NCBI GenBank assembly: GCA_965205865.1
Contig: CBDBHR010000029.1
Coordinates: forward strand, 128,001 to 192,000
From: a bacterium
GTDB taxonomy: Bacteria; SAR324; NAC60-12
Length of the DNA stretch: 64,000 bases
Reading direction: 5' to 3'
A program made the position numbers and the translations under genes. The notes beneath the pieces were generated by a model. The model saw nothing but the letters and a program-made list of their open reading frames with translations. It was not told the origin of the DNA and made no database searches. This document shows positions 17,797-64,000 of the stretch, piece after piece (position 1 is the stretch's first letter; the number at the start of each line of letters is the position of its first letter).

Positions 17797-17815
17797 ATGG
17801 TTTTTCTTCAATTTA

Positions 17816-36329: not shown

Positions 36330-36343
36330 TTTCGGTTTTCGCA

Positions 36344-39680: not shown

Positions 39681-40439
39681 TCAAATACCGTCCTCACGCA
39701 GCTTCACAAGATCATCATCCGGACCGTAACGGTGGATTTCCAGACGAAGCGAGAAAGATGCCACCTGCTCGGCCGGGATGTGGGCCAGGCGGAATGGAAA
39801 GATGCTCGGACCGTCGAGCAAGTCCGTTATGGCGGCCGAACCGTTCGCACGGGCGTGGAGAGACGCCTCCACCAGCCAGGCAATGAGACGGGGTTGCTCG
39901 AGCGGGTATTGATCCCCTTGGGCATAGACGCCTCTTTTACGCGTATCGTTCAAAACGCCCCAATCTATGAATGATCGCAGAACGCGTTGGGTGGCCCGAG
40001 ATGCGGTTTCCCGCTCTCCGTATTGTTCCTTGACCCGTCGCTGAACCTGCGACGCCTTGGCTGTTCCCTGAAGCCGCAAGAGCCTGCCGGCGTACAGGGC
40101 GACCGCACCCCAAAAGGGGTAGGCCGCCTGCGTCATGCCCCAGTGAACGGCAATTCGGTCTCTACGAGGAAGTCCCCGCAATATTTCCAAACCATCGTCC
40201 CGCAGTTTCTCCAATTCGTGAGGGACGGTGAGCCAGGTCTTCAACAGGATGGTAATTACTTTTTCCCTGTTGCACCTGCCGGACTCACTACCGACTGAAA
40301 TTTTATCTCGCAACAGATCCCGGAGTGATTCGCTGATGATGAGCCTGTTGTTTCCGGCAAGTATCAGATTGACTGTCTGTTCGAACCACTCGAGTCGGAC
40401 TCGCTGGCTGAAGCCGATCCGAGTATCCCGTCTGTTCAC
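39681..40439 (-). CDS. brxA: BREX type 3 BrxA-like protein
   Basis: GTG start overlapping the pglZ stop, with an AGGAGG RBS; IGFSQRVRLEW, HWGM...AYPFW and YGERET; last gene after pglZ. Confidence 0.7.
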   Translation of the reverse strand: MNRRDTRIGFSQRVRLEWFEQTVNLILAGNNRLIISESLRDLLRDKISVGSESGRCNREKVITILLKTWLTVPHELEKLRDDGLEILRGLPRRDRIAVHWGMTQAAYPFWGAVALYAGRLLRLQGTAKASQVQRRVKEQYGERETASRATQRVLRSFIDWGVLNDTRKRGVYAQGDQYPLEQPRLIAWLVEASLHARANGSAAITDLLDGPSIFPFRLAHIPAEQVASFSLRLEIHRYGPDDDLVKLREDGI

Positions 40440-42442
40440 GTGTTCCTCCTTTCTACCTGAACCAGAGGGACGACGAGTTCTTCGAGAGTCGCGCCACCGT
40501 GGCCGACAAGGCGTTTGCTCGTCTGCGTAAATGCCAGGCGGCCAGGAGCCAATAGGGGCAAATAGTCTTCCGGTAGTCCAACCGTTGGCCATTCCAAAGC
40601 ATCCGGGAATCGTTTTTTGATTTGACCACGCAGTAAAGAATCGGAATAAATACGAACTCGTTCGCCGCGCAAATCCGCAACCGCCCCTTCAGCGGGACGA
40701 CCACATCCGGAGGCTTCGATATTTCCGTGATCGGAGGTCAGGCAGACATGGAATCCATTATCCAAAAGCGAATCGACGAGGCGCGCCATGAACGGCTGTC
40801 CGGCCCACTGTCGTACCTGGTTGCGCATGCCTGCTGCTCCCAGTTCCATACCGTGCATGATCTTGTCGATTTTGTCGACGACGAGTGCGACAACGCGCGT
40901 TTTGGGGCGGGTAATTATCTCCTCCACGCTACCCAAGGTACCGTCTCCCAGTCCCTTGACGTAGGCAACCTCCTGCTGTGACAACCCCTGGTCCGCCCAA
41001 AACTGCGTCCACAGAGCGGGTTCCTTGTCGGTGGTATGGATACTGTTCGGAAAGTAGATGGGTGGTTTTCCTGCAAAGGCAGCTTGTCGTGAAACGGAAG
41101 TGATTGTCGGTATCCAGGCGAAAACCGCGTTTTCACGGAATCGGACCCCCGGACGTTGTTTGACGAGTTCCTGGCGTATGACGATCCACTGGTGCAAGGC
41201 AAGGCCGTCGATCAAGACCAACGCCGCTTTGCGTCCCCCGACTTCGTTGACGTGCCGTGCGAGATGACGCGGGATGTGATGGAGCATTACCGGTGGCACC
41301 GGAGGCAGATTGATCAATCCTGCGTAGCGCTTGGCCAACCAGGGTACGAAGGCAGCATCGATTTGCGCTTGCAACGTTTCCATCTTCCGCTCGGCTGGTT
41401 CCGGCAACGTGGTTTCCGGATCCGGAACGAGAGCCACCAACTCGGCCCAGTTTCTGGCAAAGTGAAACCAGTCTTCGTGCCTCGCGTCCTCCTTGGGAAT
41501 GTTGGACTCCAAGGCGTCGAGGAGCCCATTGACGCGTCGAGTCCGGTCTGCCTGCTCGTCCGTTCGGATGCCAATGAGCAGCCAGGACTTCGACCAGGAT
41601 TCAGCCTGTTCATGGGGAACGGCTTGCAGCAGTCCTTCCAGGAACAGGTTGTCAACGTAGATACGAACGTCATCGTGGTCGAAAGGCAAATCCGAGGGAC
41701 CGGGAAGTTCAAAACCATAGACTTTCTCCTTTTCATGGACGCCCGTGCCATCCTGATTCGCCAACTGCTCGAGAAAGACGGGCCAGCGTTCCTGGAGGAA
41801 GGCGAAAAAAGCTTCCCGCTCCGGGATGATCGTTTCCAGGGGCCAATCGTCAAAACTTCCTTGTTTACGGAGAACCCCTACAAAGCGTTCATCGAGCGAA
41901 GCCGGGATTCGCTGTTCCCGGTAATGGCGACGCAGCAGCACGCGCAGCAGATCGGACGGCTTTTTGATGAGATCCGGCTCAATTTCGAAAACATGGCGCA
42001 GAATGAAATCTTTAGTCGCGTTGTCACCCAAAACAGCAGGCGTATGCCGCTGCTGCGCTTCGTAGAGCGCGTCCAGGTCTCCACGGTCGAGGGCGGTTAC
42101 AATGGGATAGCTCAGATTAGGAAATATCTCTCCAAGGTTGAAAGACAACTGGCGTCCGGCTTGCAGCAGGTCGTATGGTAAAGAACCAAGGTCACCGGCT
42201 GCGGAGCGCAGCACGACCCCCCGCTCCGTTTGCTCATCCCGGTCCCAGCGGACACGGAATGCGGACTCGTAGGCATAGCGGAATATGATATGATCCTCGA
42301 ACGGGATCAGTTCGAAACCCCGCTGCCGTATGTCGGCAAGAACGTCTTCCTCCGGAAGCAAACCGTCCGGGTCGGCAACCACGGTCAGCCGGGACTCATT
42401 GGCAGTGAACTCCCTGAGAATCGAGTCGCGCCAATTACTCAT
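40436..42442 (-). CDS. pglZ: BREX-3 PglZ alkaline-phosphatase-fold protein
   Basis: VADPDGLL, LIDGL, WIPTITSVSRQA, DKIMHG, LTSDHGN and HGGATLEE. Confidence 0.92.
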   Translation of the reverse strand: MSNWRDSILREFTANESRLTVVADPDGLLPEEDVLADIRQRGFELIPFEDHIIFRYAYESAFRVRWDRDEQTERGVVLRSAAGDLGSLPYDLLQAGRQLSFNLGEIFPNLSYPIVTALDRGDLDALYEAQQRHTPAVLGDNATKDFILRHVFEIEPDLIKKPSDLLRVLLRRHYREQRIPASLDERFVGVLRKQGSFDDWPLETIIPEREAFFAFLQERWPVFLEQLANQDGTGVHEKEKVYGFELPGPSDLPFDHDDVRIYVDNLFLEGLLQAVPHEQAESWSKSWLLIGIRTDEQADRTRRVNGLLDALESNIPKEDARHEDWFHFARNWAELVALVPDPETTLPEPAERKMETLQAQIDAAFVPWLAKRYAGLINLPPVPPVMLHHIPRHLARHVNEVGGRKAALVLIDGLALHQWIVIRQELVKQRPGVRFRENAVFAWIPTITSVSRQAAFAGKPPIYFPNSIHTTDKEPALWTQFWADQGLSQQEVAYVKGLGDGTLGSVEEIITRPKTRVVALVVDKIDKIMHGMELGAAGMRNQVRQWAGQPFMARLVDSLLDNGFHVCLTSDHGNIEASGCGRPAEGAVADLRGERVRIYSDSLLRGQIKKRFPDALEWPTVGLPEDYLPLLAPGRLAFTQTSKRLVGHGGATLEELVVPLVQVERRNT

Positions 42443-44195
42443 GGGAGGGTCCTTTGTACCGGTAGTCAAACACGCACGATGAGCCCACCATCTCGCGAAA
42501 CCACAACGTGGCGCTGGCGCCCATCGAATCAGTCAGGCGGACGGGTTCGTTAAGACTGAAGTGAACCGGTTGCTGCAGACCATCTTCGATCGCCACGTTG
42601 TCGGCATAAAGATAAGTGCGATCCAGATGGTCGAGTATGGGATTCAACCGTCCCCGGATGCCTGGCAGATGTCCCGTCCGGTTGGCGATGATCAGTGAGC
42701 CTCCATTTCGCATGGATTGCATACGCAGATCAAACGGCCCGTCGTCAGGCATATAGTCGCTCGCTACTTGCGCCATGAAACCCGGCGCGGCGCACAGCAC
42801 GGTCATCGGTAGCCTCGTATGCACTTCGAAATCCGCATGCCCAAATTCATCTGTGCGCTCCTCCCGGTATGTCTTGTTCGGATAGATTAACAGTACGTGT
42901 ACGTTCCGCAGGGGTTCGCCAGTGTCGTGGTGGTGGATCGAAATTCCTGCTGCAATGCCGTTGGGCAAGGGCGGGCTAGCTGCCGGTAGGACAAGCTTTA
43001 GTTCCCGTTCGCCAATCAATTCGAAAACGGGCTTCTTCCCGGAGAGAGCGAAGGTCTCGTCCTCGATGACGGCGATGCCCTCGCCGCGTCGTTCGATAAA
43101 GTACTGTCGTCCACCGGCGCCGGGCACGTCACCAGCCGGACATTGTCCCAACCGGGAAGCCAGTAATTCGTTGCGCGTGAACTGACTGGTACGCAGATCT
43201 TCGGTCGTCATGGAGTTGCACAGACCGCCGGGTGAATAGAGTTCCAGCCGGTCATCGAATATGAACAGGCGTATCTGCGACTCCGAAACCGCGTAGTCCC
43301 GGTGAACCACGGCGTTGACCACGGCCTCGAAGACTGCGCATTCACTGTATTGGGGCACGTCACTACGTGCAGGTTGCTTACAGGCGGTGACGCGCCGGTT
43401 GCGAACGACAAAGCGCATCGCATCCAGAATTTGCTTGTCAAGAGGTCCGCTGATATCCTGGGCATCGAGTTGCCGGTTACCGTTCATCCGTTGGCCTTCG
43501 TAGCAAACAGCCTGGATGTAGGCATTCGGCAGCCAGTCACGGGGATCTTTGGCGGCGAGCAGCAAACCACCGACCGTGGCGCGGAGCGTTTCTCTTTGAT
43601 CGTCTTTGAGGAATTTCAGTTTTGAGAGGACGATCTCGGCGGGCTCGTTTATGCGTGAGCTCGCGTACCGTCTCCACAACTCAAGGCGTAAGCTGTTGAT
43701 ACCGGTATCGCGGACGACCTGCGTATCGGTGGCAGTGGCGTCGGATTGTCCACGCGATTGCAGCAATCGCCGGATTGCATCGGGTTGCATCAATCGGTTG
43801 CTGTCGCCTCGTCGCCGGAAGTAGCCGCCGGGCGAGCGGTGAACGGTTTCACCCGCTGGTATTTCGACGAGCAGGACACCTCCTCCCGTTGACGCCTGCA
43901 CCCGGTAGATATTGAATTCCACCGGTGGTTCGATACTGTCCGCACAGATATCGGTCACGAGGTTCACCAGAGCATCCAGTTGCTTCGGGTCCAGTGATTG
44001 CGGCTGACGATCATCCGAGACACCCAGGACGAGACGACCGCCGCGGGAGTTGGCAAACGCAGCTAACTCGTCAGCAAGACTGTCGCGATGAGGGGCGTAA
44101 ATCCGTTGACCTAGAAATCCAACTTCTTTCAGCTCGAGATCACTGTCCTCACCGAGACAAACCTGTTCCCAGAAACTTGTGGTATCGATTGGCAT
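42435..44195 (-). CDS. AlbA_2 (Schlafen-like) + HATPase_c_4 protein with an extra C-terminal domain
   Basis: GEDSDLELKE, AFANSRGGRLVLGVSD, EAVVNAVVHRDY, YSPGGL and ERRGEG; about 170 additional C-terminal residues. Confidence 0.85.
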   Translation of the reverse strand: MPIDTTSFWEQVCLGEDSDLELKEVGFLGQRIYAPHRDSLADELAAFANSRGGRLVLGVSDDRQPQSLDPKQLDALVNLVTDICADSIEPPVEFNIYRVQASTGGGVLLVEIPAGETVHRSPGGYFRRRGDSNRLMQPDAIRRLLQSRGQSDATATDTQVVRDTGINSLRLELWRRYASSRINEPAEIVLSKLKFLKDDQRETLRATVGGLLLAAKDPRDWLPNAYIQAVCYEGQRMNGNRQLDAQDISGPLDKQILDAMRFVVRNRRVTACKQPARSDVPQYSECAVFEAVVNAVVHRDYAVSESQIRLFIFDDRLELYSPGGLCNSMTTEDLRTSQFTRNELLASRLGQCPAGDVPGAGGRQYFIERRGEGIAVIEDETFALSGKKPVFELIGERELKLVLPAASPPLPNGIAAGISIHHHDTGEPLRNVHVLLIYPNKTYREERTDEFGHADFEVHTRLPMTVLCAAPGFMAQVASDYMPDDGPFDLRMQSMRNGGSLIIANRTGHLPGIRGRLNPILDHLDRTYLYADNVAIEDGLQQPVHFSLNEPVRLTDSMGASATLWFREMVGSSCVFDYRYKGPSHE

Positions 44196-44383
44196 GGCAT
44201 TTTCCTCAATCTTGCGTAATCATTTTTTGCAGGTGAAATTCAGGAATTTTATGTCCGTTTTGACGGCCCGTGGAGTAGTCTGCCGCCAAGGTCATTTCAT
44301 TCACGTTGGAATCTGAACCGGATAAATTGGTTACCTTTCCTCCCTCGTGCGCATTGATCACGTGTTCGGCTCGACTCATTCTA

Positions 44384-47300
44384 TCAACGATCGATCTTCT
44401 TCAATTCGTCACCAATTCCGAGAAAACCAACTTGCTCCATGCGATCGATTATGTCCAGGCAATGCGTCTTGACGTTTTCATCTGTTGTTTGCTGGTATTG
44501 ACGCACTATGAGCTTTGAAATAATAAGGGCAACTGTCGACTCGCGGTTGGCGATATTCGTCCCTTCTTCATCAACAGACTCCAAAATGCGATCTGCCGCT
44601 GGGCAAATGATCTCTGGAAGTTCGACGTTCGATTCTTCAAGAACGCGTAGAAGGTCATCCGCTCCACTTTCAAATGATTTGCTCTCAATGAACCCTGAGA
44701 TAAAATCTTTCAATTGCAGGAGCCTTTCTCCCGGAATATTAAAAAACACTCTGGAAACCTCTTGTCGTACGGATTTGGAGTTATCGTCAAAGAATTCTCG
44801 CAATAGTTCCGCGCATCGGTCACCGACGGTTTCGTGTAAAAGGTTCCCAGCGTAAACTCTGGCCGCAGCTTTTCGCATCGTTTCGCTGCCTGCCCTGATG
44901 TCTGCCGCATCGCATCCAACGTCAACGTGTTCGAGTTCTGCCAAGGTTATCTGAAGAGCGGCGTTCTCAACTGCTTCAGTATTCTCAGAACGCAGCGTGA
45001 ACTGGATTATTTCTCGTAATTGCGCATAGTGAGTGTGTATGGCGTAATGGATAAAATCACTGAAAGGCTCAGTGGCGCATATCGCTTCTGAACGACCACA
45101 TGTCTTGAGAAACAAATCAACCGCCAGATCTCGATTGAAGTTGAGCAGCGGCAGGAAAGCGTCGACTGCGCAAGTACGCACCGAGATTACCGGATCATTC
45201 GACAAGGATTCCAAGGCGGGTCGCAAGGCATCGATTCGCGATTGATCACCGTAAAGCAGCGATGCTATCGTCTGCGCAGCTTTTCCACGAACAGAATTAA
45301 TCCCGTGAGAATACGGGTCGCCTGAGTAATAACTGGTTCCATTTCCGGCGTCCTTCTGCCAGATGTCCGTCTCCGGATCAGGGTCGCTGGTGGCATAGTA
45401 AGAAACAATCTCCAGGATTCGCGATGGAAGGTGCCGGCTGGCTAAGACCCGGATACAGTGCAGGATTGAAGACCCGCTTGGTCTGCCCGGAAGCGAGTGC
45501 AGACGATCAATGATTTTTAAGAAAGTTTCCGTTGGTGTCGCCTCTATTTTCTGCTGATCGGCTTTCTTTTCCTCTTCACCTTGCGTGAAACGACTGCAGA
45601 GTCCATCAAGAATGGCGGAGAAATAATATGGATGGAGGTCATCGGGCATCTTCATGGCCAACGACGCAAAGCGATCGCGTTCTTTTCTGGAGAAGTCGGT
45701 CAATAACCTGGAAAGTTGTTCAGCATCGCCCTTCAAGAAGTCCGCAGGGTCACCCCTGAAATCGTCAGTCGAACCGTCATATTCTCTCATCGCCGAGATC
45801 CATTGGTCATCGGTCATGAATTCGGCGTTGTTCTTTGGAATTGGAGACTCTACCAATGTTGCAAGGCGCGGCCCCTCTTCCTCCACAATTTTATCGGAGA
45901 GATCAGGAAATTTTCTTTCGAGTTCTTTAATCCTGGACCTCGCCTTTTCTGAAATTCGGGAATCGTCCAATGAGCGAAGCAGGAGCAACTCAGAATAACC
46001 ACGGCGCCTCGGTGTTTGCTTCTCGTAGTCTTGACAGTAGCCGATGATGCGAGATTCAAATTGCTCAAATAGTTTGGCCGAACAATGCGATGAAATTTTC
46101 CGGAGAGCAATCCGGCTGATCGCGCTGTGGCCGGTACCTTCTCCCCTGATGGTCCACATTTCGTATCCAATATCCAATCGCCGCTGGTCCGCAAGCAAAT
46201 ATCCGGCGCACTCGTCGGCGAATTCTTGCGGGTTGTCGGCCCATGATCGAAGCAGCAAATATGAGAAAGTTTCATGTGGATGGTACGCGATCTGCGACAT
46301 ATAATGCCGAAAGAGTTCGACTTCATGCTTTGCCAGATGCTGCAGGGATTTTCGCAGATATAGCAAAATCGCATCGTCGATCTCGTAGGGAGCAACATTG
46401 TTCGACAGGGAAGGCCATAGACGATTCTTTACATATTCTCCTCTTCGATCTTCTGTCTGCAAAACGGTCGCTGTCAGACGAGGAAGCATTTTCTCGACAA
46501 AGTATTGAGGTTCCTTGGAAGCCAACTCCTCGATCATCTGCGCACCCGTGCGCGAATGATTCAGTTTACATTTATCTAAAAAATTCTGGGTTTTACCATC
46601 GTCGAATTGCTTCACGACCCGTTCAAACCATGTCGCCAGAACGTCGATGATGAATTTCGGACTTTTTTTCTTCACATTGTAATACTGGCTCCAAAAGTCG
46701 GAACCGGAGAATTCACCGACATAGTCGTCGTAGGCGCCTTGCGCAATCAGATCGAGATAGAGGGTAGTCATCCCCCTGCTCTGATGAGCTTTGCCCCACG
46801 ACATGATTCGCAGGATTCGCTGTCGCCAGTCCCCGTCGTATCCAACGTAGGGTGCAATCAACTCAGCTATGCGGGATGATCTTCTATCGTGCAGTTCCGG
46901 TATTTCCAGATACCGGGTTGCAATGTCGACGAGACGGGTGTCGTCGGAAGCAAGCCAGTTCTCATAAACTTCAAGCGAGTCCAGCAGGTCGAACCATCCA
47001 ACGTGGCCAGACATTGCTGCGTATATGTAGCGGGAAAGATCTCCATCCAACAAGTATGATTCTGCTAAGGACCAATCCTCCGGTTTTGGCTTGTCGATTT
47101 GCCCGAATCCTGACGCGACCATACGCATGATGTGAAAGCGAACTTTCTGCGATTCGAAGATTTCACGAACATCAGTTATATACTGGTCAAACTCCTCCTC
47201 TCTGCGAAAAGCGAGAATCTGACGCACCTGGGCTCTGCGGAACAAGTGCTGCTGTTTCTTCGATCCCAGAAAATCGACTACGCCATCTCCTTTTGCGCAA

Positions 47301-49051
47301 AATCGCCTGGCGTATGCATAGTCGAAGAACGATTCGTGGAAAAAGCGATACTGATGTTTCTCCTGATCCTCCACCAGCACGTGTTCCGAAATCATTGCCT
47401 TTGCATCTTTGGCCCAGTTGTCAATAACTAACTTGGGAGCAAAGAGAACTTGCTGTTCACTCATCCTCCCAGTCAGCGCATCGATTATAAGATCCCAATG
47501 TGATTCACGCCCAAGGCGTTCCTCCAAATTCTGACGCTTTCTGTCCCAATATCCCTTATACAACTCACCCACCGAATTGAAACGACGGGTCGGATCACCT
47601 TGGAGAAAAAGGAGCAGTTGGAAGGGAATACCGAGTAATTCAAGCTGTTGCTCTGTTGGGTTGAATTGAGCTTGTCCGGCCTTGCGAAGCGATTCCAGGA
47701 TGTCGGTCTTGTCCAATTTCTCGAGCGTATGTTTCGTAAAACCGGACTGAGAATCTCCCAGCCCTCTCAGACGGTAATCGTGATTCAGGTCGAAGTCCCG
47801 GCACGCCATCATCATTTTCATATGGGGATAGGACTGCACTTCATTGAGCAATTCACCGAACACCTCCCACATCCTGGGGTTGCGACCGGAAACGAGGCTG
47901 ATGGCATCCAGTTGGTCGACAACGAGCACGCTCGATGCGTTGTCCGCGATACCAGCGAGCACAACCGCCGGTGAAGCAGGTAAATCCAACTGTTCGCCGA
48001 GTTGACGAGTTGTATTGCAAGGATCGAGAGAGTCCATTCTCAAACATATGTAGGGTGTGCCTTTAACGGAAAGTTGAGAGAGACATTGCGCCAGTATGCA
48101 ACTTTTTCCGAACCCGCCAGGCGCTACGAGCAAAGCGCCGCGCGAATCAGTATCCCAGAGTGTAACAAGAATCTGCTCAACGATATTGCGGACGATTGGA
48201 GCCGAATTAATGAGTTCAAATTCCGTTACCTCCAGATAACGTTGGTTGATCTTTTTGACGAGTTTATTGACAGATAAATCGGTCTTCCAGTCACGGTTAC
48301 CGATCCCATTGCCTTGAAGAAACTGACGAATGTGGTCAGCATTGATCCGGGCGCCAAGACGATCGAGGATGAATTCGGCGATCATTCGACGAATATCGCC
48401 CGGCTTCAAAGGAGAACCGTCCGTGCGATAGAAATGATCGGAAATTCGTTGTTCCACAGTCTGGACTAGATCATTTTCTACACGCGTAATGACTTCAAAA
48501 CTCTTTAAGGCCGAGAATGCGAATTCTTCGTCACCGTTGCAAATTGGAACGATTTTCTGATCAAATTCTTTCTGGAGCTTTGGAAGTGGATTGATTTCAT
48601 TCTGGAGCTCTGGATGCTGGTTGAATTCATTCCGGAGTTTTGGAGAAAGTCTCTTTCGGAACTCGGAAAGGTCGTTTGACGATTGCGCACGTTCGGACAG
48701 TTCGCGAAGTTCGTTCGCCCCGGTTGACGATAAGAAGCGAGTTTCCGCATTGGGATATGAATGCCGCTTATTTAATAAATCGCCAAGGATACTCCGGCCT
48801 GTCTTCTTGTCTTCACGGCAGAGGTCCGCAATCGACCAGTCTCCGCCTGGCTTTTGACGTTTGACGGAGTGGAACTGCCGCTTGTTGTCGTTGGTCTCGA
48901 GATAGAACTCGACGCCGAGCGATTCATCGTCAAAGGGTTCGACCGTAATTGCCTTGAACGTTCCTACGAATACGTCGATGACCTTGTCAACGGTCCAAAC
49001 CGCCTCATATTGGTTACTGATTTTGTTTGCTTCTCCACCTGATCGAGGCAT
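44384..49051 (-). CDS. 1555-aa STAND/NACHT-like NTPase (Avs-like) with putative N-terminal nuclease-like domain
   Basis: Walker A APGGFGKS, Walker B LVVDQLD, FFHESFFDY, long helical C-terminus; N-terminal GVEF...FHSVKRQ. Confidence 0.75.
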   Translation of the reverse strand: MPRSGGEANKISNQYEAVWTVDKVIDVFVGTFKAITVEPFDDESLGVEFYLETNDNKRQFHSVKRQKPGGDWSIADLCREDKKTGRSILGDLLNKRHSYPNAETRFLSSTGANELRELSERAQSSNDLSEFRKRLSPKLRNEFNQHPELQNEINPLPKLQKEFDQKIVPICNGDEEFAFSALKSFEVITRVENDLVQTVEQRISDHFYRTDGSPLKPGDIRRMIAEFILDRLGARINADHIRQFLQGNGIGNRDWKTDLSVNKLVKKINQRYLEVTEFELINSAPIVRNIVEQILVTLWDTDSRGALLVAPGGFGKSCILAQCLSQLSVKGTPYICLRMDSLDPCNTTRQLGEQLDLPASPAVVLAGIADNASSVLVVDQLDAISLVSGRNPRMWEVFGELLNEVQSYPHMKMMMACRDFDLNHDYRLRGLGDSQSGFTKHTLEKLDKTDILESLRKAGQAQFNPTEQQLELLGIPFQLLLFLQGDPTRRFNSVGELYKGYWDRKRQNLEERLGRESHWDLIIDALTGRMSEQQVLFAPKLVIDNWAKDAKAMISEHVLVEDQEKHQYRFFHESFFDYAYARRFCAKGDGVVDFLGSKKQQHLFRRAQVRQILAFRREEEFDQYITDVREIFESQKVRFHIMRMVASGFGQIDKPKPEDWSLAESYLLDGDLSRYIYAAMSGHVGWFDLLDSLEVYENWLASDDTRLVDIATRYLEIPELHDRRSSRIAELIAPYVGYDGDWRQRILRIMSWGKAHQSRGMTTLYLDLIAQGAYDDYVGEFSGSDFWSQYYNVKKKSPKFIIDVLATWFERVVKQFDDGKTQNFLDKCKLNHSRTGAQMIEELASKEPQYFVEKMLPRLTATVLQTEDRRGEYVKNRLWPSLSNNVAPYEIDDAILLYLRKSLQHLAKHEVELFRHYMSQIAYHPHETFSYLLLRSWADNPQEFADECAGYLLADQRRLDIGYEMWTIRGEGTGHSAISRIALRKISSHCSAKLFEQFESRIIGYCQDYEKQTPRRRGYSELLLLRSLDDSRISEKARSRIKELERKFPDLSDKIVEEEGPRLATLVESPIPKNNAEFMTDDQWISAMREYDGSTDDFRGDPADFLKGDAEQLSRLLTDFSRKERDRFASLAMKMPDDLHPYYFSAILDGLCSRFTQGEEEKKADQQKIEATPTETFLKIIDRLHSLPGRPSGSSILHCIRVLASRHLPSRILEIVSYYATSDPDPETDIWQKDAGNGTSYYSGDPYSHGINSVRGKAAQTIASLLYGDQSRIDALRPALESLSNDPVISVRTCAVDAFLPLLNFNRDLAVDLFLKTCGRSEAICATEPFSDFIHYAIHTHYAQLREIIQFTLRSENTEAVENAALQITLAELEHVDVGCDAADIRAGSETMRKAAARVYAGNLLHETVGDRCAELLREFFDDNSKSVRQEVSRVFFNIPGERLLQLKDFISGFIESKSFESGADDLLRVLEESNVELPEIICPAADRILESVDEEGTNIANRESTVALIISKLIVRQYQQTTDENVKTHCLDIIDRMEQVGFLGIGDELKKIDR

Positions 49052-49115
49052 GTGAATTACCTGCGAAATTATTGAAAATCAATCCACCATAAATTGCGCT
49101 TTGGAAACAAATCGT

Positions 49116-49308
49116 TCATTCGTCTTCTCCGCTGCGCGTCAGAGCTTGGTCGTACCACATGAGGAGTTTGGGGTCCTCCTGGAGCACGGTCTCGGGTATT
49201 TTACGGGCTGCGGTGATGATGGTGACATAGTCGCGCTCTTGCCAGGCTTTTGGAAGCCAGTTCAAATGCATCCAAGCGAAACACCTTCAGGGGTCACTGT
49301 TTGGATTC
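49116..49308 (-). pseudogene. Degenerate copy of the pglXI 3' end
   Basis: ESKQ*PLKVFRLDAF.../QERDYVTIITAARKIPETVLQEDPKLLMWYDQALTRSGEDE*, matching 57045-57240. Confidence 0.9.
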
Positions 49309-49414
49309 CAAGAATGCCTTCTTGCGGAAGAAGGCCGGCGGGGTCGGCAACCACGATCAGCCGGGCCACCTTGGCATTGAACTCCCTGAGGATCAAGTCG
49401 CGCCAGTCACTCAC
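49309..49414 (-). pseudogene. Degenerate copy of the pglZ 5' end
   Basis: GTG-SDWRDLILREFNAKVARLIVVADPAGLLPQEGIL versus PglZ MSNWRDSILREFTANESRLTVVADPDGLLPEEDVL. Confidence 0.9.
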
Positions 49415-49431
49415 GGATACCTTCCTTTGTA

Positions 49432-50685
49432 TCAATCTTCATCCCCAGGTTGCAGGCTCGCGGCAAAAAAAGTCAGTAAAAGTTCGGAATCGTCAATCAG
49501 ACGATAAACTGGTTTCTTTCCGGAAATTTTTTCACTCTCTTCTATGATGATTGGAACGCCGTCGCCTCGCTTTTCCATGTAAAAACCGCGTCCATCATCT
49601 CCCACTGTTTTCACAGGCGTTTCTGCAAACAAGCTTGTAATCAATTCGTTACGTGTTGCCTGACGCAGGGATATGCTGTCAATGGTCACCGTGTTCGGGA
49701 GAGCACCTGGCGAGTAAATTTCCAGACGATCAGCAAACATGAAAAATCGAATTTTCGAGGCAAAAATAGAGTAGTCCCGGTGAGCCACGGCATTGACAAT
49801 TGCCTCGAAGACGGCTCTTTCACTGAATTGTTTCATTTCCACTCTATGGGGCTTTTTCACGGCCGAGACCGTTTGGTTTCTCCTGAGAAAGGCCATTGCC
49901 TGTTCAACTTGCTGATTCAGCGGGCCGCGAATCTGTTGGGCGTCTCTCTGGTAATTGGAATCCTGCTTTTTCCCACGATAGCGCACTGCTTCGATATACG
50001 CGTTGGGCAAAAAGCGTTCGGGCTCCTCACAACAGAACAAAACACCGGCAACCGAAGCCCGAATGATCCCACTTTCTTCTTTCGACAATAGACCACGTTT
50101 AAGGAGCACAATGTCGGCAGGTTCGCTGTACCTGGTTGTATAGTTGGCCGATAGTTTTTCCGACAAATCGTCAATGCTTGCTTGCGGAACCGGCTGTTCC
50201 TCGAATCGAATCAAACGGGCCTGACTTCGTTGCTGGAACAATCGTGCCAGGTATTCGGGAGGCATCTGCCGTCTTGAACTTCCTTGCCGAAAGAAATATC
50301 CCCCGGAACTCCTGTGAACGAAAAGACTGCTTGGAATCTCTATTTTGATCACTGCTTGCGAAACACCGGTACTGTCTGGAACTCGCATGCGAAACGAGCG
50401 AAACAGAACAGGAGGTTGGATGTTATCGTTACAGATTTCATAGACAAAACGTTCGACAGTATCGAGGTTGTCTATAGGAATGCCGACGACGTCTCTCGTC
50501 TTATCATCCACACCCAGCACCAGCACGCCGCCATGGGAGTTGGCGAATGCTGCTAGTTCGTCGGCCAACTCATCATGCCTCGGATCGGAAACCTGGCTGC
50601 CTCTGAATCGGACTGTCTTGAGTTCCAATAAAGAGTTTTCTTCAATATGTATCTTTCGTAGCAGTTCTGCCGTACTTTCAAACAC
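49432..50685 (-). CDS. AlbA_2 + HATPase_c_4 protein, paralog of 42435..44195
   Basis: ENSLLELK, AFANSHGGVLVLGVDD, EAIVNAVAHRDY, YSPGAL and EKRGDG. Confidence 0.85.
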   Translation of the reverse strand: MFESTAELLRKIHIEENSLLELKTVRFRGSQVSDPRHDELADELAAFANSHGGVLVLGVDDKTRDVVGIPIDNLDTVERFVYEICNDNIQPPVLFRSFRMRVPDSTGVSQAVIKIEIPSSLFVHRSSGGYFFRQGSSRRQMPPEYLARLFQQRSQARLIRFEEQPVPQASIDDLSEKLSANYTTRYSEPADIVLLKRGLLSKEESGIIRASVAGVLFCCEEPERFLPNAYIEAVRYRGKKQDSNYQRDAQQIRGPLNQQVEQAMAFLRRNQTVSAVKKPHRVEMKQFSERAVFEAIVNAVAHRDYSIFASKIRFFMFADRLEIYSPGALPNTVTIDSISLRQATRNELITSLFAETPVKTVGDDGRGFYMEKRGDGVPIIIEESEKISGKKPVYRLIDDSELLLTFFAASLQPGDED

Positions 50686-50893
50686 GATGTTCCTCAAGTG
50701 CAATGCGGATATAACAATTTTAATTGAGTGGTCGTTCCTCAGACTGCTACTTAGCGACGTTCTTCCAATTCGGCGTCACAGTTGCCAAAGATGAGGGAGA
50801 TAAGTCCACCGTTTCCCGGATAAGTTCATCGAAGAGATAGACATAACGTCCGGTTGAGCCATTATGGACAAAACTTATTGCCGCGTTTTCATT

Positions 50894-52507
50894 TCAGTCT
50901 CTCAGATCCTCTAGTCTTCGGAGCCACTCCGTATTATTTACGGCAACGCGAGATTGTGCTGACGCGAAGCGGTGGGCTATGCTCTGGGCGAATTCTTGTT
51001 TCAGTTCTCCCAACCAGTCAAATCGTTTACCGCATACATCGGTGAAGATGAAACCTCCTTTTTCATCTCGCTCTGCAATGACTGGGGCTCCGTCATTTTT
51101 TGGTTTGAATTTAACCAGCTTCCATTGAGATGCTTTAATTCCAACACTGAAACGCTGAAACGTATTCTTATCTGTGCGCAGAACAAGTTGGATTATCTTC
51201 TCCTTCGGCTTGATCAACGGCAAAAGAAGGAAGGAATACTCATCATTCACCTTCAATCGTACACTGTCACATCTTGGTCTCATACAAAGAAAGTAATTTG
51301 GATCACTTGTCTCGTTCTGCTCCCGCAGGACAGTACCTAAATGTAGTATCAGACGAGGGTCATCAAAGACTGTACGGAAGCTGAACATCCAAGCCAATTT
51401 GTGATCCAGTTTGTTCTCCGGTTTGCCGTTCTTCGAAAATACGGAAGCCAATTTGTCGAAATTTTCCTTTTCCTTTTTTCTGTTTTTCAGGACACTGGGT
51501 TTCTTCTTGTCCCAACCCTCTTTTTGAAGATCAACAGCCTCGTCAAGAGACACTTGCTTGTTTTTTTCGAATATGAATTTCTTGTTCGGCCCGGCTTCTG
51601 CTTCCAGCCATTCATTGACGGCCTTCATCCCCGCCGGACTCTTCTTTGCCGTAGCATCGTCCATGATAGCGTGTAACTCGCTTGTGAGTTGATCCACCAT
51701 TTGCTGTTGTGAGTCTTCGGGAACGGGCAGACACGCCCGATGCGCGAGGAAAGCCGGGTCAAGTTCCGCATGGAATTTATCAAGGACTTTATGAACGTTC
51801 TCTCGAATGGCTGTGAGCGACGTTAAGGCGATGCTGGGAAGGAGTCCTTCGGTCATACTTGCAAAGTCTCTGATGAGTTTTTCTGGTACCTGCTCCTCCG
51901 GAACAGTCCTGTCCTTCAACCCTAATGCGAGTGATATGTCAGATTTCGCATATATTACGATACGACAATGCTGATAGCAGAGCACAACATCATGCTTATC
52001 TCTCTGAAATTTCCATTTCGATTTTTCCAATTCTTGAGCGATAGTTTGTCCGATTCCAGAGATATCCTGCTCCCCCGTGTAGATCGCGATCAAGCGGAGT
52101 TGCTCATGAGCGTTATCTTTCAGAATTTCTTTCAACATCGACATGGTCTTTCTGCCGTTGTCTACGTTCAATTGCCAGTCCAACACCACGATATCGGCCT
52201 GTTTTGCGATACGAACCACTTTGTTGTTGACCGTCGTGTCGTCGGGTCTAGGCGCAATTACGCCACAGATCAACCCATGCCTGGCGAAGGAGTCTACAAG
52301 AACCCGCGCATCAAGACTGTGACGACCTGGCAAGTCGATTCCCTCCGTTTTTTCCGTATTTCCATCCAATGTATGTCGATCTGGTGTAACAAGAGAATGG
52401 TTTGCAGGCGGTGCACCATCAATTCGCGCCTCGTCGTCCACGATAACAGCAGTTTGGAGAAAACGCTTAGCGATTTCCATACAATGTTGGCTGAAGTCAC
52501 TCACCAT
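50894..52507 (-). CDS. Atypical response-regulator receiver-domain protein with large uncharacterised C-terminus
   Basis: AVIVDDE, VVLDW and IYTG; C-terminal LCMRPRCDSVR; overlaps the kinase stop. Confidence 0.8.
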   Translation of the reverse strand: MVSDFSQHCMEIAKRFLQTAVIVDDEARIDGAPPANHSLVTPDRHTLDGNTEKTEGIDLPGRHSLDARVLVDSFARHGLICGVIAPRPDDTTVNNKVVRIAKQADIVVLDWQLNVDNGRKTMSMLKEILKDNAHEQLRLIAIYTGEQDISGIGQTIAQELEKSKWKFQRDKHDVVLCYQHCRIVIYAKSDISLALGLKDRTVPEEQVPEKLIRDFASMTEGLLPSIALTSLTAIRENVHKVLDKFHAELDPAFLAHRACLPVPEDSQQQMVDQLTSELHAIMDDATAKKSPAGMKAVNEWLEAEAGPNKKFIFEKNKQVSLDEAVDLQKEGWDKKKPSVLKNRKKEKENFDKLASVFSKNGKPENKLDHKLAWMFSFRTVFDDPRLILHLGTVLREQNETSDPNYFLCMRPRCDSVRLKVNDEYSFLLLPLIKPKEKIIQLVLRTDKNTFQRFSVGIKASQWKLVKFKPKNDGAPVIAERDEKGGFIFTDVCGKRFDWLGELKQEFAQSIAHRFASAQSRVAVNNTEWLRRLEDLRD

Positions 52508-55472: not shown

Positions 55473-55473
55473 C

Positions 55474-56535
55474 TTAAGTATATGCTCGTATTTCTTTCAG
55501 GTGTTCGGTGACGTGCTGCCCGATGATCTTTGCCAGTCTTACGGGTACGGCATTGCCGATCTGCCGAGCCATTGAGGTGAGGCTTCCCTCAAAAAGAAAA
55601 TCATGCGGGAACGTCTGCAGACACGCCGCTTCGCGTACGCTTATGGCTCTGTCCTGTTCCGGATGTCCGAAACGGCCATTGGAGTAGCTGATACATCGCG
55701 TCGTCAACCCGGAGGCGGGTCGATCCCAAGACATACGGCCGTAAACGTCACTGTACCCCGGAGTTTTCTTATGACACTCAAGTCGAAGTCGTTTCGGCCA
55801 ATCCCCGTGACCACCGCCTTCTGGCGTTGCTCGCACTCGTTCCATGTTATGTTTTGATAATCCTGCAGCACGATGATTCGGAACAGTCGCGTCTTCCTCA
55901 CCGGCGGCGATGGGTGGTAGATCTTCAATCCAATTCCTCACAGTTTCGTAGTTTAGTTTTGTTGTTTCGGGTCCGTTCGTCTCCGGTGGCAGTTCAATGG
56001 GTCCATGGAGACTTGCCAGAAGCACAAGTCGACAGCGACTCTGAGGGACGCCATACTTCATGAGTGACACTCGCTTGTATGCAACATAATAGCCGGCGTT
56101 TTTGAGGCTTTGAAGAAATCCGCCGAACGGCTGAGTGTGGTGGTTCAACTTCTGGAGACCTGGCACGTTCTCGACAAACACGATATCCGGCTTGCAAACA
56201 TTGACAAGCTTAGCGAAATAATAAAGAAGTGGCACCCGATCGTCCTCTTCTCGTGCGGGACGCATGGTATTCTGCTTTGTAAACGGCTGACATGGTGCGC
56301 ATCCGCAGAACAGAATGGGATTCGGTCTCTGAGCAGCTAGAAGCGAACTAACGTGACTGACCGATGTTTCACAGATATCCGCGAGTTCGAAGTGGACGGA
56401 AGGAAAATTTATTTGGAAAGTGCGTTGTGAGTCCGGGTCGCAATCGAGCGCGAAAACGATTTCCATCCCGGCATCACGAAATCCGCAACTCGCTCCGCCA
56501 CAACCGGAGAAAAAATCGAATACCTTGACGTTCAT
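55474..56535 (-). CDS. dcm: C5-cytosine DNA methyltransferase
   Basis: DFFSGCGG, APCQPF, ENVPG, QSRCR, REAACLQTFP and QIGNAVP. Confidence 0.93.
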   Translation of the reverse strand: MNVKVFDFFSGCGGASCGFRDAGMEIVFALDCDPDSQRTFQINFPSVHFELADICETSVSHVSSLLAAQRPNPILFCGCAPCQPFTKQNTMRPAREEDDRVPLLYYFAKLVNVCKPDIVFVENVPGLQKLNHHTQPFGGFLQSLKNAGYYVAYKRVSLMKYGVPQSRCRLVLLASLHGPIELPPETNGPETTKLNYETVRNWIEDLPPIAAGEEDATVPNHRAAGLSKHNMERVRATPEGGGHGDWPKRLRLECHKKTPGYSDVYGRMSWDRPASGLTTRCISYSNGRFGHPEQDRAISVREAACLQTFPHDFLFEGSLTSMARQIGNAVPVRLAKIIGQHVTEHLKEIRAYT

Positions 56536-56969
56536 ACTCTCACTTTCCCTTGGCAAAGATTTTCTTCGAAGAAACGACGTATTTTCCCTGCGAGCCGATT
56601 TTGGTCTCTTGTCTCGCACTCCCATATTATCATTACCCCCCAGCCAGCCTCCCGGAGAGCAGTGGTGTTTTGCTGATCACGTTCCATGTTTCGTGACAGC
56701 TTCTGTTCCCAAAAAGCGCTGTTCGTTGCGGGGCGTTTTGCTTTCGCGCAATGCCTGTGCCCGTGCCAGAAACAACCGTGTACGAAAATTACTTTCCCGT
56801 ATAGTGGGAACACCAAGTCAGGTTTGCCAGGTAGCCCCTTCCTATATAACCGGAAGCGATAACCCAGGCTGTGGGTTACTTGTCGTACCAGAAGCTCTGG
56901 CTTTGTTCCTGTCGTGCGTATGCGCGCCATGATTTCGCTACGCTTCTCACGACTGTATATATCATTCAT
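56532..56969 (-). CDS. vsr: Very-short-patch repair endonuclease
   Basis: RSEIMARI, TKPE, LPGKPD, FVHGCFWHGH and IWECE. Confidence 0.95.
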   Translation of the reverse strand: MNDIYSREKRSEIMARIRTTGTKPELLVRQVTHSLGYRFRLYRKGLPGKPDLVFPLYGKVIFVHGCFWHGHRHCAKAKRPATNSAFWEQKLSRNMERDQQNTTALREAGWGVMIIWECETRDQNRLAGKIRRFFEENLCQGKVRV

Positions 56970-57044
56970 AAGATGAACTCAATAACAATGGATCAACTCG
57001 CATAAGGTAATCACCGTCTTAAACTGCGTTTGGAAACCGATCGT

Positions 57045-59838
57045 TCATTCTTCCTTCCCGCTGCGCGTGAGGGCTTGGTCGTACCACATGAGGAGTTTGG
57101 GGTCTTCCTGGAGGATGGATTCGGGTATCTTGCGGGCTGCGGCGATGATAGTGGCGTAGTCACGTTCCTGCCAGGCTTTTTTGAACCCGGTCCGGAAGGC
57201 TTCCAAACGGAATACCTTCAGGCGTCTTTGTTTCGATGTACGGTATTGCTCGAATTCTTTCAGCAAAGCGCGTTCCCGGAGTTGCTCGAGGTCACCCGCT
57301 TTGTTCGGGTCGGGCACGTACCAGCGGTTCTTGGCCTTGACCCTGAGCGTACGGGTCGTCCTTTGTCCGGTTGCGCAACTCCTTGAAGTTCGAGGAAAGG
57401 TAGCTGTGAACCTGACTGGGCACCTGACCCATGCCGTCATAGCGCAGGAAATTCTGCTCGAGCAGTAAAGAAAGCTCCAAAATCTTTTCATGCTTTTGCC
57501 AGCCGCCGATCTCTTTGAGGAACTGTGGGTGAATGTCCTGGAAGGTCTGAGGCTTTTTAGTGAGTTGCTGCTTGAGCCATTGGATGGCTGAAGCCTCGTC
57601 GGAAACATAAAGCTGAAGTTGAAGAACCTCCTTGACCGTCATGCGCTTCTTGTCGTATTCGGCTGCTTGTTCCGGCAAGAAAAACATGCTGTCACGTGAC
57701 GGGAAACGTTGTTCCAGACCTGCATAAAATTCGGAGGCGGACAGAGGAACCATCACGCCGCGCTGGACGTGGAAGGCCACCATGCGGTCAAAGAGCAGGT
57801 AGTTCTGGCGCTCGGCAATGACCTCGACTTGACCATTGTTGGAAATAAATACGGGGAGCTGTCTCAGATGCGTGCGGACGAAATCCCAGGTACCTTCCTC
57901 AGTTCCGGCGGTAAGTTTGAAGCGGTCTTCAAGACCACCGTTGGGCTTATACGCCGAGATGATAAGGTCTTGCTTTACAGCCCCACCAGATGTGACCTGC
58001 TTAAACGTTCCAGCTTGTTTGTCAAGCGTTCGCACATCGGCAATCACCAGACCAGCGTGCTGTAAAGCTTCTTGAATGCAGTTCCAAACGCTGTTTTTTG
58101 AGTTGTGAAACTCCACGGTCATCCATCGACCGGGCTTAAGAACACGGTAATATTCTTTAAAACTATCCGTCATCAGCGCTTGGTACTGTAAAAGGCCTTT
58201 ATCTTGATGTTTTGATTCAATTGCCTCTTGATTACGTTGTGTTACGACTTGCAGCCACTCCTCCCACAGAACATTGAGCTCTGCATACGCAAGATTGCCA
58301 CCGAACGGCGGATCAGTAAATACGTAGTCGCAGCTTGCATTGGCCATGATCATGCGAGTCGTGGAATGGCATTCTATTACATTTCTTGACCGCAGTTGCT
58401 CATAAGCAGCCACAAAACGACGCAATTTATTACTGTATGCAACAAATATATTAGGTTCCGATATCTGTGAACCGACATACAGGGTGCCACTAAGTGGGTT
58501 GTATGGGAATGATACACCCGGTCTGTAACGGTTCAAGCGGGATACATTGACCAGTTGGCTCGTAAAAAGAAGCATTGTTTGGGGCCAGTCTTTGAAACGC
58601 TCTCTTAAAGCGGCCAGTATCCAAATACTGCGTCGAGTGTATAAATGATGTACATGCGTAATGCCAATGATATCGTTTCTACGGGTTTCTCCTCCCTCAA
58701 AGAGCCTATTCGTTGGCAACCAGTAAGAAAGATCGCTTTGCTCGATCGTCTCGATCAGCGCCAAGTCTTTGTTATCAGGCCTCTTCTCATACCGCTTCTT
58801 GTCTACACTATAGTTAATGAGTACTGGAATCTGCTTGGTCTGCCGAATAGTCTGGTTACTGGCCTTATCGAACTTGGTTACCCAAGCCCGGTCCATACGC
58901 CGCTTAGTAAGTGATGCATTGCAATCGGGACAAGAAAATTTTTTCGATACCCTTCCGGTCTCTTTATCAACAGCCGCTTCCCAGAAAACCACCTCGTCAG
59001 TACATTCCGGACAGACGAATACATCTGACCAAACTGTGTAGTTGATTATTCCAACACATCCATCGGAATGCCTGGTTTCATACATCCAACCGCACTCGTC
59101 CTCGACCTCCTTCAAGATGCGCTTCGCTTTACTTTCGAAGGACTTCACATCTACAGGTGAATTATAGTTGTAGGCGATAAATGTCGCGGCGGGTGAGAGG
59201 TCGTTTAGAATAGCTAGGCGCGGTCCGAACATGGAGAAGGGCATCCAGTTCATTTTCCCGTTTTCACCCGTTTCCTGCTGATAAATCGTTCCGTCCTTGC
59301 CCACAAGGTAGTCAAGAGATTCAATAATTGCCTTGTCACCACAAAATTGTGCCGCCACGCCTGTCATCCCTGTCCCGCAGAAACCGTCGAAAACCACGTC
59401 ACCTGGCTCGGTGTAATGGAGAATGTACCGCATGATGGCCTTGTGCGGCACCTTGGTGTGGTAGGAGTGGGCGTTGTAGATAGGATCATTCTTTCCTTCA
59501 CTCACATCCGACGCGAATGGTTCCCGGTGGTAGTTGTCGGTAGCCGGGTCATAGGGCTTGCCGTAGTGCTCGATGAAATCCTCGATGAAAGGATTGGGAC
59601 AAGCCGTGTAATACGGTGGATCGGACAAGGCCAGGATATCCTCGTCTTCGCCAATGGGAAATCCCTCGATCTTGCGGAACTCCGGGTCCTTGAGTTTCTC
59701 GCGAAGCTTATCCAGGAAATATTCCTGGCGCATCTCATCGTTCTGGAAGGTCATTCCGAGGCAAGTCACCGGTTCCTGCAACATGGCTTCGGCTTCTTCC
59801 GGAAATAAGGACATGTTGTCTTCATTATTTGTCGCCAT
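57045..59838 (-). CDS. pglXI: BREX-3 amino-methyltransferase (PglXI-like), +1 frameshift near 57351
   Basis: HSYHTKVP, FDGFCGTGMTG, CPEC...CPDC and FTDPPF; the tail WYVPDPNKAGDLE...LLMWYD is in the adjacent frame. Confidence 0.8.
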
Positions 59839-59907
59839 ATTTCTCCTCGCTATAGTGAGCTGACTTCAACCGAGTTTCCAGCGGTTCTCTTTGTTCCGAT
59901 CGGGTCA

Positions 59908-60684: not shown

Positions 60685-60687
60685 TGC

Positions 60688-60873
60688 TTACACCTCGTCG
60701 AAAAGCCGCAATTGCAACTCAGGTGGAACATCGAGATTCGCGTCCTCGATCAGACAGCATAAGGCCCCGTGAAAACTGTCGTAGCGGACGGTTGGCTCGG
60801 CGTATGCGTCCTCTCGTGTTCTGAACTCCTGATACCGTTCTTTGGCCCTGTGATTCGAATAGGTTTTCGCCAT
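60688..60873 (-). pseudogene. Short, probably truncated partner gene upstream of the DUF1828-like gene
   Basis: 61-aa ORF tightly packed between brxC and the DUF1828-like gene; reads like a C-terminal fragment. Confidence 0.4.
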
Positions 60874-63800: not shown

Positions 63801-64000
63801 TGGTCTGCTGTTCACCGGTCTTCTTGAGCAGCCGTTCTGCTACCACGAATTTGATATCGCTACGGACGATAAGAACCTGCTCAAAGCGATCCTTCACCCG
63901 GCGGATGCTGTCCGCGACGAAGGAAAAACGCGGGCTGTCGAAAATGGCTTCCTGTACTCCCGCCATGAAGCGGAAACGCAGGTCCTTGCAAACCTCACCA
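60877..64000 (-). CDS. brxC: BREX-3 BrxC-like (DUF6079) ATPase, 5' end outside window
   Basis: [44 protein letters not shown] and C-terminal CPHCNYKP; upstream of pglXI and pglZ. Confidence 0.85.

Follow-up and report, generated by a model that had tools for sequence, protein, structure and literature searches.

The window analysed here is a stretch of 64,000 nucleotides (contig CBDBHR010000029.1, positions 128,001 to 192,000) from a bacterium of the SAR324 lineage, and the subject is a type 3 bacteriophage exclusion (BREX) island in which the core genes pglXI and pglZ are separated by two groups of defence genes. On the minus strand, the order established with Pfam and PADLOC is brxC, DUF1828, pglXI, then vsr, dcm, a paraMORC-HEF_HK gene, Response_reg_2 and a Schlafen/AlbA gene (cassette A), then a scar composed of core-gene pieces, then a STAND NTPase gene and a second AlbA gene (cassette B), and finally pglZ and brxA (Table 1). 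The two programs agree with the gene order and identities proposed earlier from the sequence without database searches (the original prediction). The type 3 markers recognized by PADLOC are a PglZ of the type 3 clade, BrxC/PglY, PglXI and BrxA. A 159-aa open reading frame (ORF) upstream of brxC, outside the window (L085:2640-3119), may encode BrxF, with weak P-loop matches only (nSTAND_NTPase5, 1e-3). The SNF2 helicase BrxHII is canonical for type 3. No helicase was found by Pfam or PADLOC in the interval between pglXI and pglZ, hereafter the slot, and an nhmmer profile detected no 5' remnant of brxHII there. BrxHII occurs in 77% of type 3 systems and is missing from 23% (PMC12839542).

TABLE 1. 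Features of the BREX type 3 island (window positions) and, in the last five rows, scars of the same design in other loci (positions within the locus named).
Feature	Position	Strand	Basis or remark
brxC/pglY, 5' end beyond the window	60877..63966	-	PADLOC PDLC02482, 1588 bits; Pfam DUF6079, E=0
DUF1828/PDC-M24B gene, in the smaller variable gap brxC-pglXI	59908..60684	-	Pfam PF08861 1.4e-25; PADLOC PDC-M24B 1.1e-19
pglXI methyltransferase, frameshifted in the window near 57350; last ~220 nt form the conserved upstream slot arm	57045..59838	-	PADLOC PDLC02541, matched by each of the two ORF pieces
vsr, very-short-patch repair endonuclease, opens cassette A behind the real pglXI	56532..56969	-	Pfam PF03852 2.1e-29
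dcm, C5 cytosine DNA methyltransferase	55474..56625	-	Pfam PF00145 1.4e-53
paraMORC-type GHKL ATPase fused to HEF_HK histidine-kinase-like module, 991 aa	52497..55472	-	Pfam HATPase_c_3, HEF_HK (PF19191 1.2e-30), HATPase_c
Response_reg_2 receiver protein, C-terminal ~340 aa without family	50894..52507	-	Pfam PF19192 6.7e-39, residues 16-190
AlbA1, Schlafen/AlbA_2 + HATPase_c_4, abuts pglZ' relic	49432..50703	-	Pfam
pglZ' relic, 17-nt leader + first ~35 codons of a foreign pglZ, GTG start 49414	49309..49431	-	blastn; nhmmer pglZ 5' profile E 2.7e-21
'pglXI relic, last ~64 codons, one frameshift, stop 49116-49118, ~26 nt past stop	49090..49306	-	blastn
STAND-type NTPase, 1555 aa, N-terminal Cap4-like nuclease domain, Avs-like	44384..49051	-	Pfam + PADLOC, weak matches
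AlbA2, second Schlafen/AlbA_2 + HATPase_c_4, 586 aa, overlaps real pglZ start	42435..44195	-	Pfam
pglZ (real), downstream slot arm	40436..42442	-	PADLOC PDLC02558 E=0, 1011 bits, full length
brxA, last gene of the island	39681..40592	-	PADLOC PDLC02444 8e-98
L015 scar	brxHII' 5337-5505; 'pglXI 5486-5596		
L046 scar	brxHII' 5618-5698; 'pglXI 5696-5810		
L052 scar			weak; cassettes as in L046
L065 scar	brxHII' 4439-4491; 'pglXI 4485-4525		
L068 scar	brxHII' 4240-4411; 'pglXI 4427-4525		

The island is a 25.6-kb insertion relative to the sole genome of the same genus compared (G001), in which the housekeeping flanks lie about 560 nt apart. The source genome resembles a metagenome-assembled genome (30 contigs, 92% complete). 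BREX-3 PglZ is rare near the host, with 3 of 41 relatives and 3 of 88 genomes of the phylum positive (both counts include G000), and there is no close comparator. No recombinase, including the tyrosine recombinase IntI, was found among the Pfam matches of the scanned ORFs (at least 100 aa) in the island and its flanks. An ORF for an IstB/DnaC-like ATPase (35439-36380; PF01695, 9e-14) is situated 3 kb past brxA, no longer within the inserted island.

The scar carries pieces of both genes that border the slot. Its pglZ' relic (49431 to 49309) aligns to the start of the real pglZ (42458 to 42337) over 123 nt with 80.5% identity (E 3.7e-23), including 17 nt ahead of the start codon, and its 'pglXI relic (49306 to 49090) aligns to the end of the real pglXI (57237 to 57020) over 219 nt with 81.7% identity (E 2.2e-51), continuing some 26 nt past the stop. 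These blastn searches covered the whole genome; they gave no second copy of the scar on any other contig. Only 2 nt separate the relics, and translation yields 35 codons of pglZ followed by about 64 codons of pglXI with one internal frameshift. Thus the fusion of diverged, non-identical gene ends described in the original prediction was found as stated. The differences between the 'pglXI relic and the resident gene end are mostly synonymous (pS 0.49, pN 0.06, pN/pS 0.13), which indicates that the relic evolved within a working gene of another lineage and is not a decayed local copy.

The joint itself was recovered from the reads. A Logan contig of 331 nt from run X2 matches positions 49149-49479 without a single difference and extends more than 150 nt to either side of the joint; since it bridges the joint, the joint exists in the read data. 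In a second study (runs X5 and X6) cover of both cassettes was patchy, with no bridging piece among those listed. By visual inspection of the alignment, not by computation, some 33 consecutive bases are identical between the relic and the real end of pglXI, and the k=31 contigs break within this run, at 49149-49164. Single read-derived contigs were also seen to join 41661 to 49135, 42577 to 49546 and 55563 to 56757, with a shorter side of only 20-30 letters. The second of these skips 6968 nt, close to the 6972 nt by which the pglZ' relic is offset from its real counterpart. On this very thin evidence, the joints 41661/49135 and 42577/49546 could represent a pop-out allele or the locus of a relative.

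The slot was compared among 80 BREX-3 loci that span many phyla. They are the top-scoring 80 among the at least 477 confirmed hits that a profile built from three PglZ proteins gave in species-representative genomes, and their PglZ is 57-78% identical to that of the window. Fifty of the 80 have a full pglXI 3' end upstream of pglZ and were scored for scars. A second sample of 401 genomes of one phylum contained 15 with PglZ; 13 regions were taken, three were duplicates and three too short, and seven were new loci. Between the pglXI stop and the pglZ start lie as few as 50 nt (L040) and, at the other extreme, more than 8.8 kb. A BrxHII helicase of about 950 aa abuts pglZ in at least 30 loci, and the variable part then lies between pglXI and brxHII. 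The cargo includes OLD-type and other ABC ATPases, GmrSD, Mrr-STAND, SIR2, AIPR, AAA_15-DUF3696 with RNA ligase, an AAA+ ATPase with subtilase, DUF3644, DUF3800, a 922-aa ATPase with an AlbA1 homolog, and other cassettes without a family assignment. An exchangeable slot, as the original prediction had supposed, is therefore seen in about 50 loci with unrelated defence cassettes.

The borders of the slot are sharp. In 37 of the 50 loci the first cassette gene begins within 15 nt of the pglXI stop or overlaps it. The final codons of pglXI usually contain a purine-rich ribosome-site motif, and beyond the stop the loci no longer resemble one another. At the other border, the next core gene, either brxHII or pglZ, starts right against the last cassette gene. 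Conservation of the last 210 nt or so of pglXI, and of the first 150-360 nt of both pglZ and brxHII, sufficed for nhmmer profiles by which all loci were found. No common motif followed the pglXI stop when 48 loci and eight relics were compared, an attC fold search not having been run. The original prediction of an integrase-free route is consistent with the lack of any integrase found, while its likeness to integrons holds as an analogy only, no conserved site having been found behind the stop.

Such scars are not confined to the window. They were sought by tblastn with the gene ends of all loci, by blastn of suspect intervals against their own locus, and with nhmmer profiles of three gene ends (3' for pglXI, 5' for pglZ and for brxHII), and all three approaches agree. 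In five of the 50 loci (L015, L046, L052, L065 and L068) the slot contains a 5' piece of brxHII joined to a 3' piece of pglXI (Table 1). As L046 and L052 share cassettes, and L065 and L068 have the same downstream cassette, there are at least three independent scar groups besides the window. Microhomology is limited to 0-2 nt at four joints, and L068 has 15 nt of filler. Lone 'pglXI relics stand ahead of cassettes in L061, L050 and, weakly, L075. Of ten 'pglXI relics, seven (L015, L046, L052, L061, L068, L075 and L032) start some 100-120 nt ahead of the stop, at positions 87-111 of the 210-position profile; the other three start at 5 (the window), 129 (L050) and 165 (L065). This clustering could mark a preferred break region or the edge of detectable conservation.

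Most of the cassettes that flank these scars are also found singly in other loci, directly behind a real pglXI stop. Thus L015 holds in stacked form both Mrr-STAND, which is single in L039, and the AAA_21 pair, which is single in L051 and L070; DUF3644 (single in L006 and L069) and a 449-aa gene (single in L048) are both stacked in L046 and L052. Likewise, a 634-aa AAA_15 gene (single in L009) is stacked in L068, the AAA_15-468/177/RNA ligase cassette (single in L025 and L078) in L065 and L068, GmrSD (single in L014, L033 and L041) in L061, and the 922-aa ATPase with AlbA1 (single in L007 and L031) in L050. Among the loci compared, no single occurrence was found for the upstream genes of L065, nor for DUF488 and DuOB of L046. 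The relics of L032 and L050 resemble the real pglXI end of L007 and L031, the home of the ATPase-AlbA1 cassette, more than they resemble the resident end, and relics thus appear to travel with their cassette. Identity between relics and real ends is 68-86%. L065 and L068 are 99% identical in the cassette and 89-99% identical along brxHII and pglZ, a mosaic that points to frequent homologous recombination in the core.

The window's own genes provide one further parallel. Homologs of AlbA1 with 74-79% identity are present in L007, L031, L032, L049 and L050. In L007 and L031 they abut pglZ directly, and in L032 they abut a pglZ' relic. The AlbA1-pglZ junction is the only junction of the window that recurs elsewhere, in these first two loci. 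Three things carry the case for the window: the scar, the presence of this junction in L007 and L031 as well, and the parallel stacks of other loci. Judged from these sequences, it is very probable that two slot alleles were concatenated head to tail, each keeping native core flanks, as had been predicted; the analogous scars in five of the 50 loci, with flanking cassettes mostly single elsewhere, agree with this.

How the alleles came together is less certain. The pglXI stop codon is the cassette boundary in BREX-3, and the conserved core-gene ends would serve as homology arms. With such arms, whole cassettes would be swapped among the BREX-3 loci of many phyla by ordinary homologous recombination, leaving no scar. 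In rare captures, an incoming allele homologous on one side only would be joined illegitimately at its other end. The product would be a head-to-tail joint in which a 5' piece of the next core gene is fused to a 3' piece of pglXI, and the old and new cassettes would then stand in tandem within one operon. Such a process would amount to homology-facilitated illegitimate recombination of the kind proposed for effector-immunity arrays of type VI secretion systems (T6SS). The relics (123 and 219 nt, about 81% identical to the real ends) would in turn allow either cassette to be lost again by recombination. The one-ended illegitimate route in particular is advanced tentatively, as a possibility that falls a little short of probable. 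The overall picture of a chromosomal type 3 BREX island without brxHII, whose slot after pglXI holds two concatenated alleles, seems to us reasonably probable.

Several observations weigh against this interpretation. The original prediction was to be refuted if neither of the window's cassettes occurred alone between pglXI and pglZ elsewhere, and on this point the result counts against it: neither was found alone, and no homolog of the Vsr, Dcm, histidine kinase, receiver or STAND proteins was found in any of the 80 BREX-3 loci or in the seven further loci. The survey of slots that it had suggested gave other scars, in the form brxHII'/'pglXI, and single alleles of other stacks, and none of the window's own. 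STAND homologs in 40 metagenome loci (profile scan, 28-60% identity) have no pglXI, pglZ, brxHII or AlbA nearby. No donor allele above 85% identity to either relic was present among the loci compared, the best (L006, 85%) being no closer than the resident ends. The short pglZ' relic has a pN/pS of 0.69 and is uninformative. None of the seven loci of the second sample has a full scar. The order pglXI-A-scar-B rests on the assembly: the contig break within the 33-nt repeat means that the k=31 contigs do not phase it and are unable to tell which cassette follows which pglXI copy. The 68-86% identity of core genes between alleles is low for efficient RecA-dependent recombination. Finally, as far as sequence can tell, one-ended capture, a circle and a duplication intermediate would give the same product.

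Of the other routes to the scar, the circle mentioned in the original prediction survives best. A cassette with short flanks would be excised to give a pglZ'/'pglXI junction, and a single crossover in a short arm would insert it into a resident BREX-3 locus. The scar is exactly the junction expected of such a circle. Moreover, L032 contains a unit with relics at both ends (13736-17963; 'pglXI relic, 922-aa ABC-type ATPase, AlbA1, pglZ' relic), which lies outside the operon, 1 kb after brxA, and adjoins a convergent FAD-oxidoreductase/BNR housekeeping gene; its pglZ' part is 95% identical to the pglZ of L032 itself. In the window, recombination between the relic and the real pglXI end would free a circle of about 7.9 kb with cassette A, and the k=31 contigs are compatible with this. 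However, the data show no circle junction distinct from the chromosomal scar, the arms, of 27-219 nt, are short as well as diverged, and a non-replicating circle requires a transfer route. Nor is a circle required, as linear one-ended capture leads to the same product. One-ended capture fits at least as well, and the circle is regarded as improbable.

A tandem duplication, by illegitimate sister-strand exchange between the pglXI 3' end and the start of the next core gene, followed by replacement of one copy with a foreign cassette, is somewhat less likely again. Head-to-tail joints with 0-2 nt of microhomology are typical of duplication join points, and homologous mosaicism, needed for the replacement, is evident in the core genes. 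Yet in none of the 50 loci or the seven of the second sample do two like cassettes stand around a scar, and extra conversion steps would be needed to account for the window's 'pglXI relic, whose differences from the resident end are mostly synonymous, and for relics that resemble the native flank of the adjacent cassette. A deletion between two tandem complete BREX-3 loci, from the pglZ start of the first to the pglXI end of the second, is very unlikely. The relic-flanked remains right after the complete locus L032 would suit it, as would G091, the genome of L081 and a cultured species, which has two BREX-3 pglZ genes, though on different contigs (C6 and C68). However, no tandem pair of complete loci was seen among the 87 loci, and at least four lineages would each have had to acquire the identical two end points independently. 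That the assembler merged two strains with one cassette each is scarcely credible, despite the MAG-like genome, the strain variants among runs and the contig breaks in the 33-nt repeat, since the joint, unique and diverged in sequence and with a frameshift of its own, is mismatch-free in a read-derived contig and nothing that an assembler is able to invent, and the same scar design appears in unrelated assemblies.

Precedents exist both for embedding and for the likely mode of capture. Defence genes embedded in BREX, in the defence island system associated with restriction-modification (DISARM), in type I restriction-modification (RM) systems and in Hma have been described under the name of guilt by embedding (bioRxiv 10.1101/2024.01.29.577857), in a preprint that left out systems with pseudogenes. 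Auxiliary or backup effectors in BREX have been reported (PMC12839542, NAR 2026), among them Schlafen-miniHK-wHTH proteins linked to BREX core loci in at least 1017 taxa, and BrxU and PrrC are further examples of genes embedded in BREX (PMC12707154). Like the cassettes of the window and of the slot at large, the published embedded systems consist of co-oriented cassettes inside a multi-gene system, and they include GmrSD, OLD/PARIS-like ATPases and Schlafen-miniHK-wHTH proteins. PDC-M24B and PDC-M54A, which match genes of the window, are phage-defence-candidate models of PADLOC, of the kind whose building the preprint describes. In the passages found of the preprint and of PMC12839542 the route of cassette entry is not addressed. 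The words recombination and remnant are missing from both main texts, as are hotspot and acquisition from that of the preprint and cassette and pseudogene from that of PMC12839542.

One-ended illegitimate capture was proposed by Kirchberger et al. for T6SS effector-immunity modules of Vibrio cholerae and for orphan arrays of Rhs and contact-dependent inhibition (CDI) loci (PMC5361080); those authors invoke homology-facilitated illegitimate recombination and themselves draw the parallel to integrons. As in the BREX-3 slot, a conserved upstream gene acts as anchor, modules are added without an integrase, and old modules are displaced in sequence but kept, with a piece of the conserved gene. Two features of that type of capture, a conserved anchor beside a variable module and joints with little or no homology, are seen in BREX-3. 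The T6SS and Rhs loci encode toxins and immunity proteins, whereas the cargo of the BREX-3 slot consists of anti-phage systems in an operon; in BREX-3, moreover, the two core genes at the borders each contribute a piece to the scar, and the stacked cassettes both look intact. In the minimal mobile elements of Neisseria, a variable region between conserved genes is exchanged by homologous recombination in the flanks, without mobility genes (PMC3787668). These elements are replaced, not stacked, whereas in BREX-3 the flanks belong to one defence operon and exchange crosses phyla. With integrons the slot shares the ordered build-up of promoterless cassettes downstream of a fixed point, but no integrase or attC-like conserved site was found, and there are at most a few cassettes. 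Scars of the pglXI type in BREX, which link embedding to one-ended capture, were not found in the literature searched.

The scars are direct physical evidence of entry events. They mark the exact break points, show that cassettes carry native core-gene flanks, and reveal operons that gather defence genes with no recombinase devoted to the task. Cassette boundaries and stacking can be searched for in any BREX-3 locus by this signature, to which brxHII or pglZ contributes the 5' piece and pglXI the 3' piece fused to it, and the scars predict the loss of single cassettes by recombination between a relic and the real gene end. More broadly, but doubtfully, the slot after pglXI might be a general recombinase-free cassette platform, in which the pglXI 3' end would provide both ribosome site and homology arm, and cassettes would cross phyla with bits of both core genes, possibly as circles, stack, and pop out singly. 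If true, this logic may explain the embedding of cassettes in BREX-1, DISARM, type I RM and Hma.

With respect to content, the four consecutive genes at 50894-56969 match a published module (PMC8011034) that associates two-component-like HEF_HK/Response_reg_2 pairs with C5 methylases and paraMORC ATPases; in the window it sits inside a BREX-3 slot and is accompanied by Vsr. Cassette A is probably a composite of this vsr-dcm-paraMORC-HEF_HK-Response_reg_2 module and AlbA1, whose homologs pair elsewhere with the 922-aa ABC-type ATPase. AlbA2 is 44-47% identical to the AlbA1-type proteins of L018 and L049. The STAND protein matches Cap4_nuclease at 1.5e-5 (25.7 bits, under the cut-off of 26.2) and, in PADLOC, PDC-M54A at 3e-13 and, weakly, Avs2 (5e-5); a match to HEAT is weak (0.009). 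It has 209 homologs at E<=1e-10, the closest being P0001-P0008 (81-96% identity), and the P-loop motif PGG[FY]GKSC was picked from an alignment of 29 STAND sequences as a conserved search pattern. A scan of metagenome contigs with the single STAND protein gave no relatives, and 88 genomes of the window's phylum gave one distant match only. No relics of other cassette genes were found within the window's slot by tblastn with all slot proteins of the 80 loci. From the gene content, the predicted outcome is layered defence in one operon, with BREX-3, a Dcm/Vsr and paraMORC-kinase/receiver module, two Schlafen-like proteins and an Avs-like STAND NTPase.

The G+C content is mosaic. The whole genome has 0.48; BrxC, the last 300 nt of pglXI, AlbA2 (0.572), PglZ and BrxA have 0.57; and the pglXI body, DUF1828, the genes from vsr to AlbA1 and STAND (0.49) have 0.47-0.51. 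In view of this mosaic, cassette B may be bipartite, with STAND as one part and, as the other, an AlbA2 of long association with the core. The G+C content of the pglXI body and of DUF1828 (57400-60800; 0.49-0.51) is host-like and unlike that of the BREX core, and the specificity-bearing body of pglXI may itself have been exchanged. The frameshift that splits pglXI into two ORFs in the window is probably an assembly error or a rare, minority variant, since contigs of three runs from two studies (X2, X3 and X5) lack one base at 57350; removal of this extra base restores an intact PglXI of 930 aa.

Other parts of BREX-3 loci also vary. A 5' remnant of brxHII lies directly upstream of pglZ, with no full brxHII, in at least nine loci (L006 9883-9971, L009 9790-9891, L014 9771-9953, L021 9773-9953, L016 2-94, L019 9773-9873, L023 5731-6053, L054 975-1049 and L069 1562-1805), which suggests that the helicase was lost repeatedly by internal deletion. 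A second recurrent type of scar, without a pglXI piece, consists of a brxHII 5' piece (50-110 nt), a small PF05635 gene (23S rRNA intervening-sequence protein, bAvd-like) and full brxHII, in four loci (L044 6604-7129, L078 6483-6920, L130 6787-7187 and L134 11213-11691); two of the seven new loci of the second sample are of this type. In L065 (1853-2431) and L078 (3297-3832) pglXI is internally deleted, with an N-terminal piece fused to the last 70-90 codons or so, and in L007 (2336-3941) it is interrupted by about 1.6 kb; these degenerate loci still keep full cassettes. A second variable gap, of 0-2 kb between brxC and pglXI, is seen in L023, L034, L048, L051, L067, L071, L077, L136, L138 and the window. 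The window, L056 and L074 carry DUF1828 in this gap, and several other loci have distant AlbA/Schlafen-like genes there.

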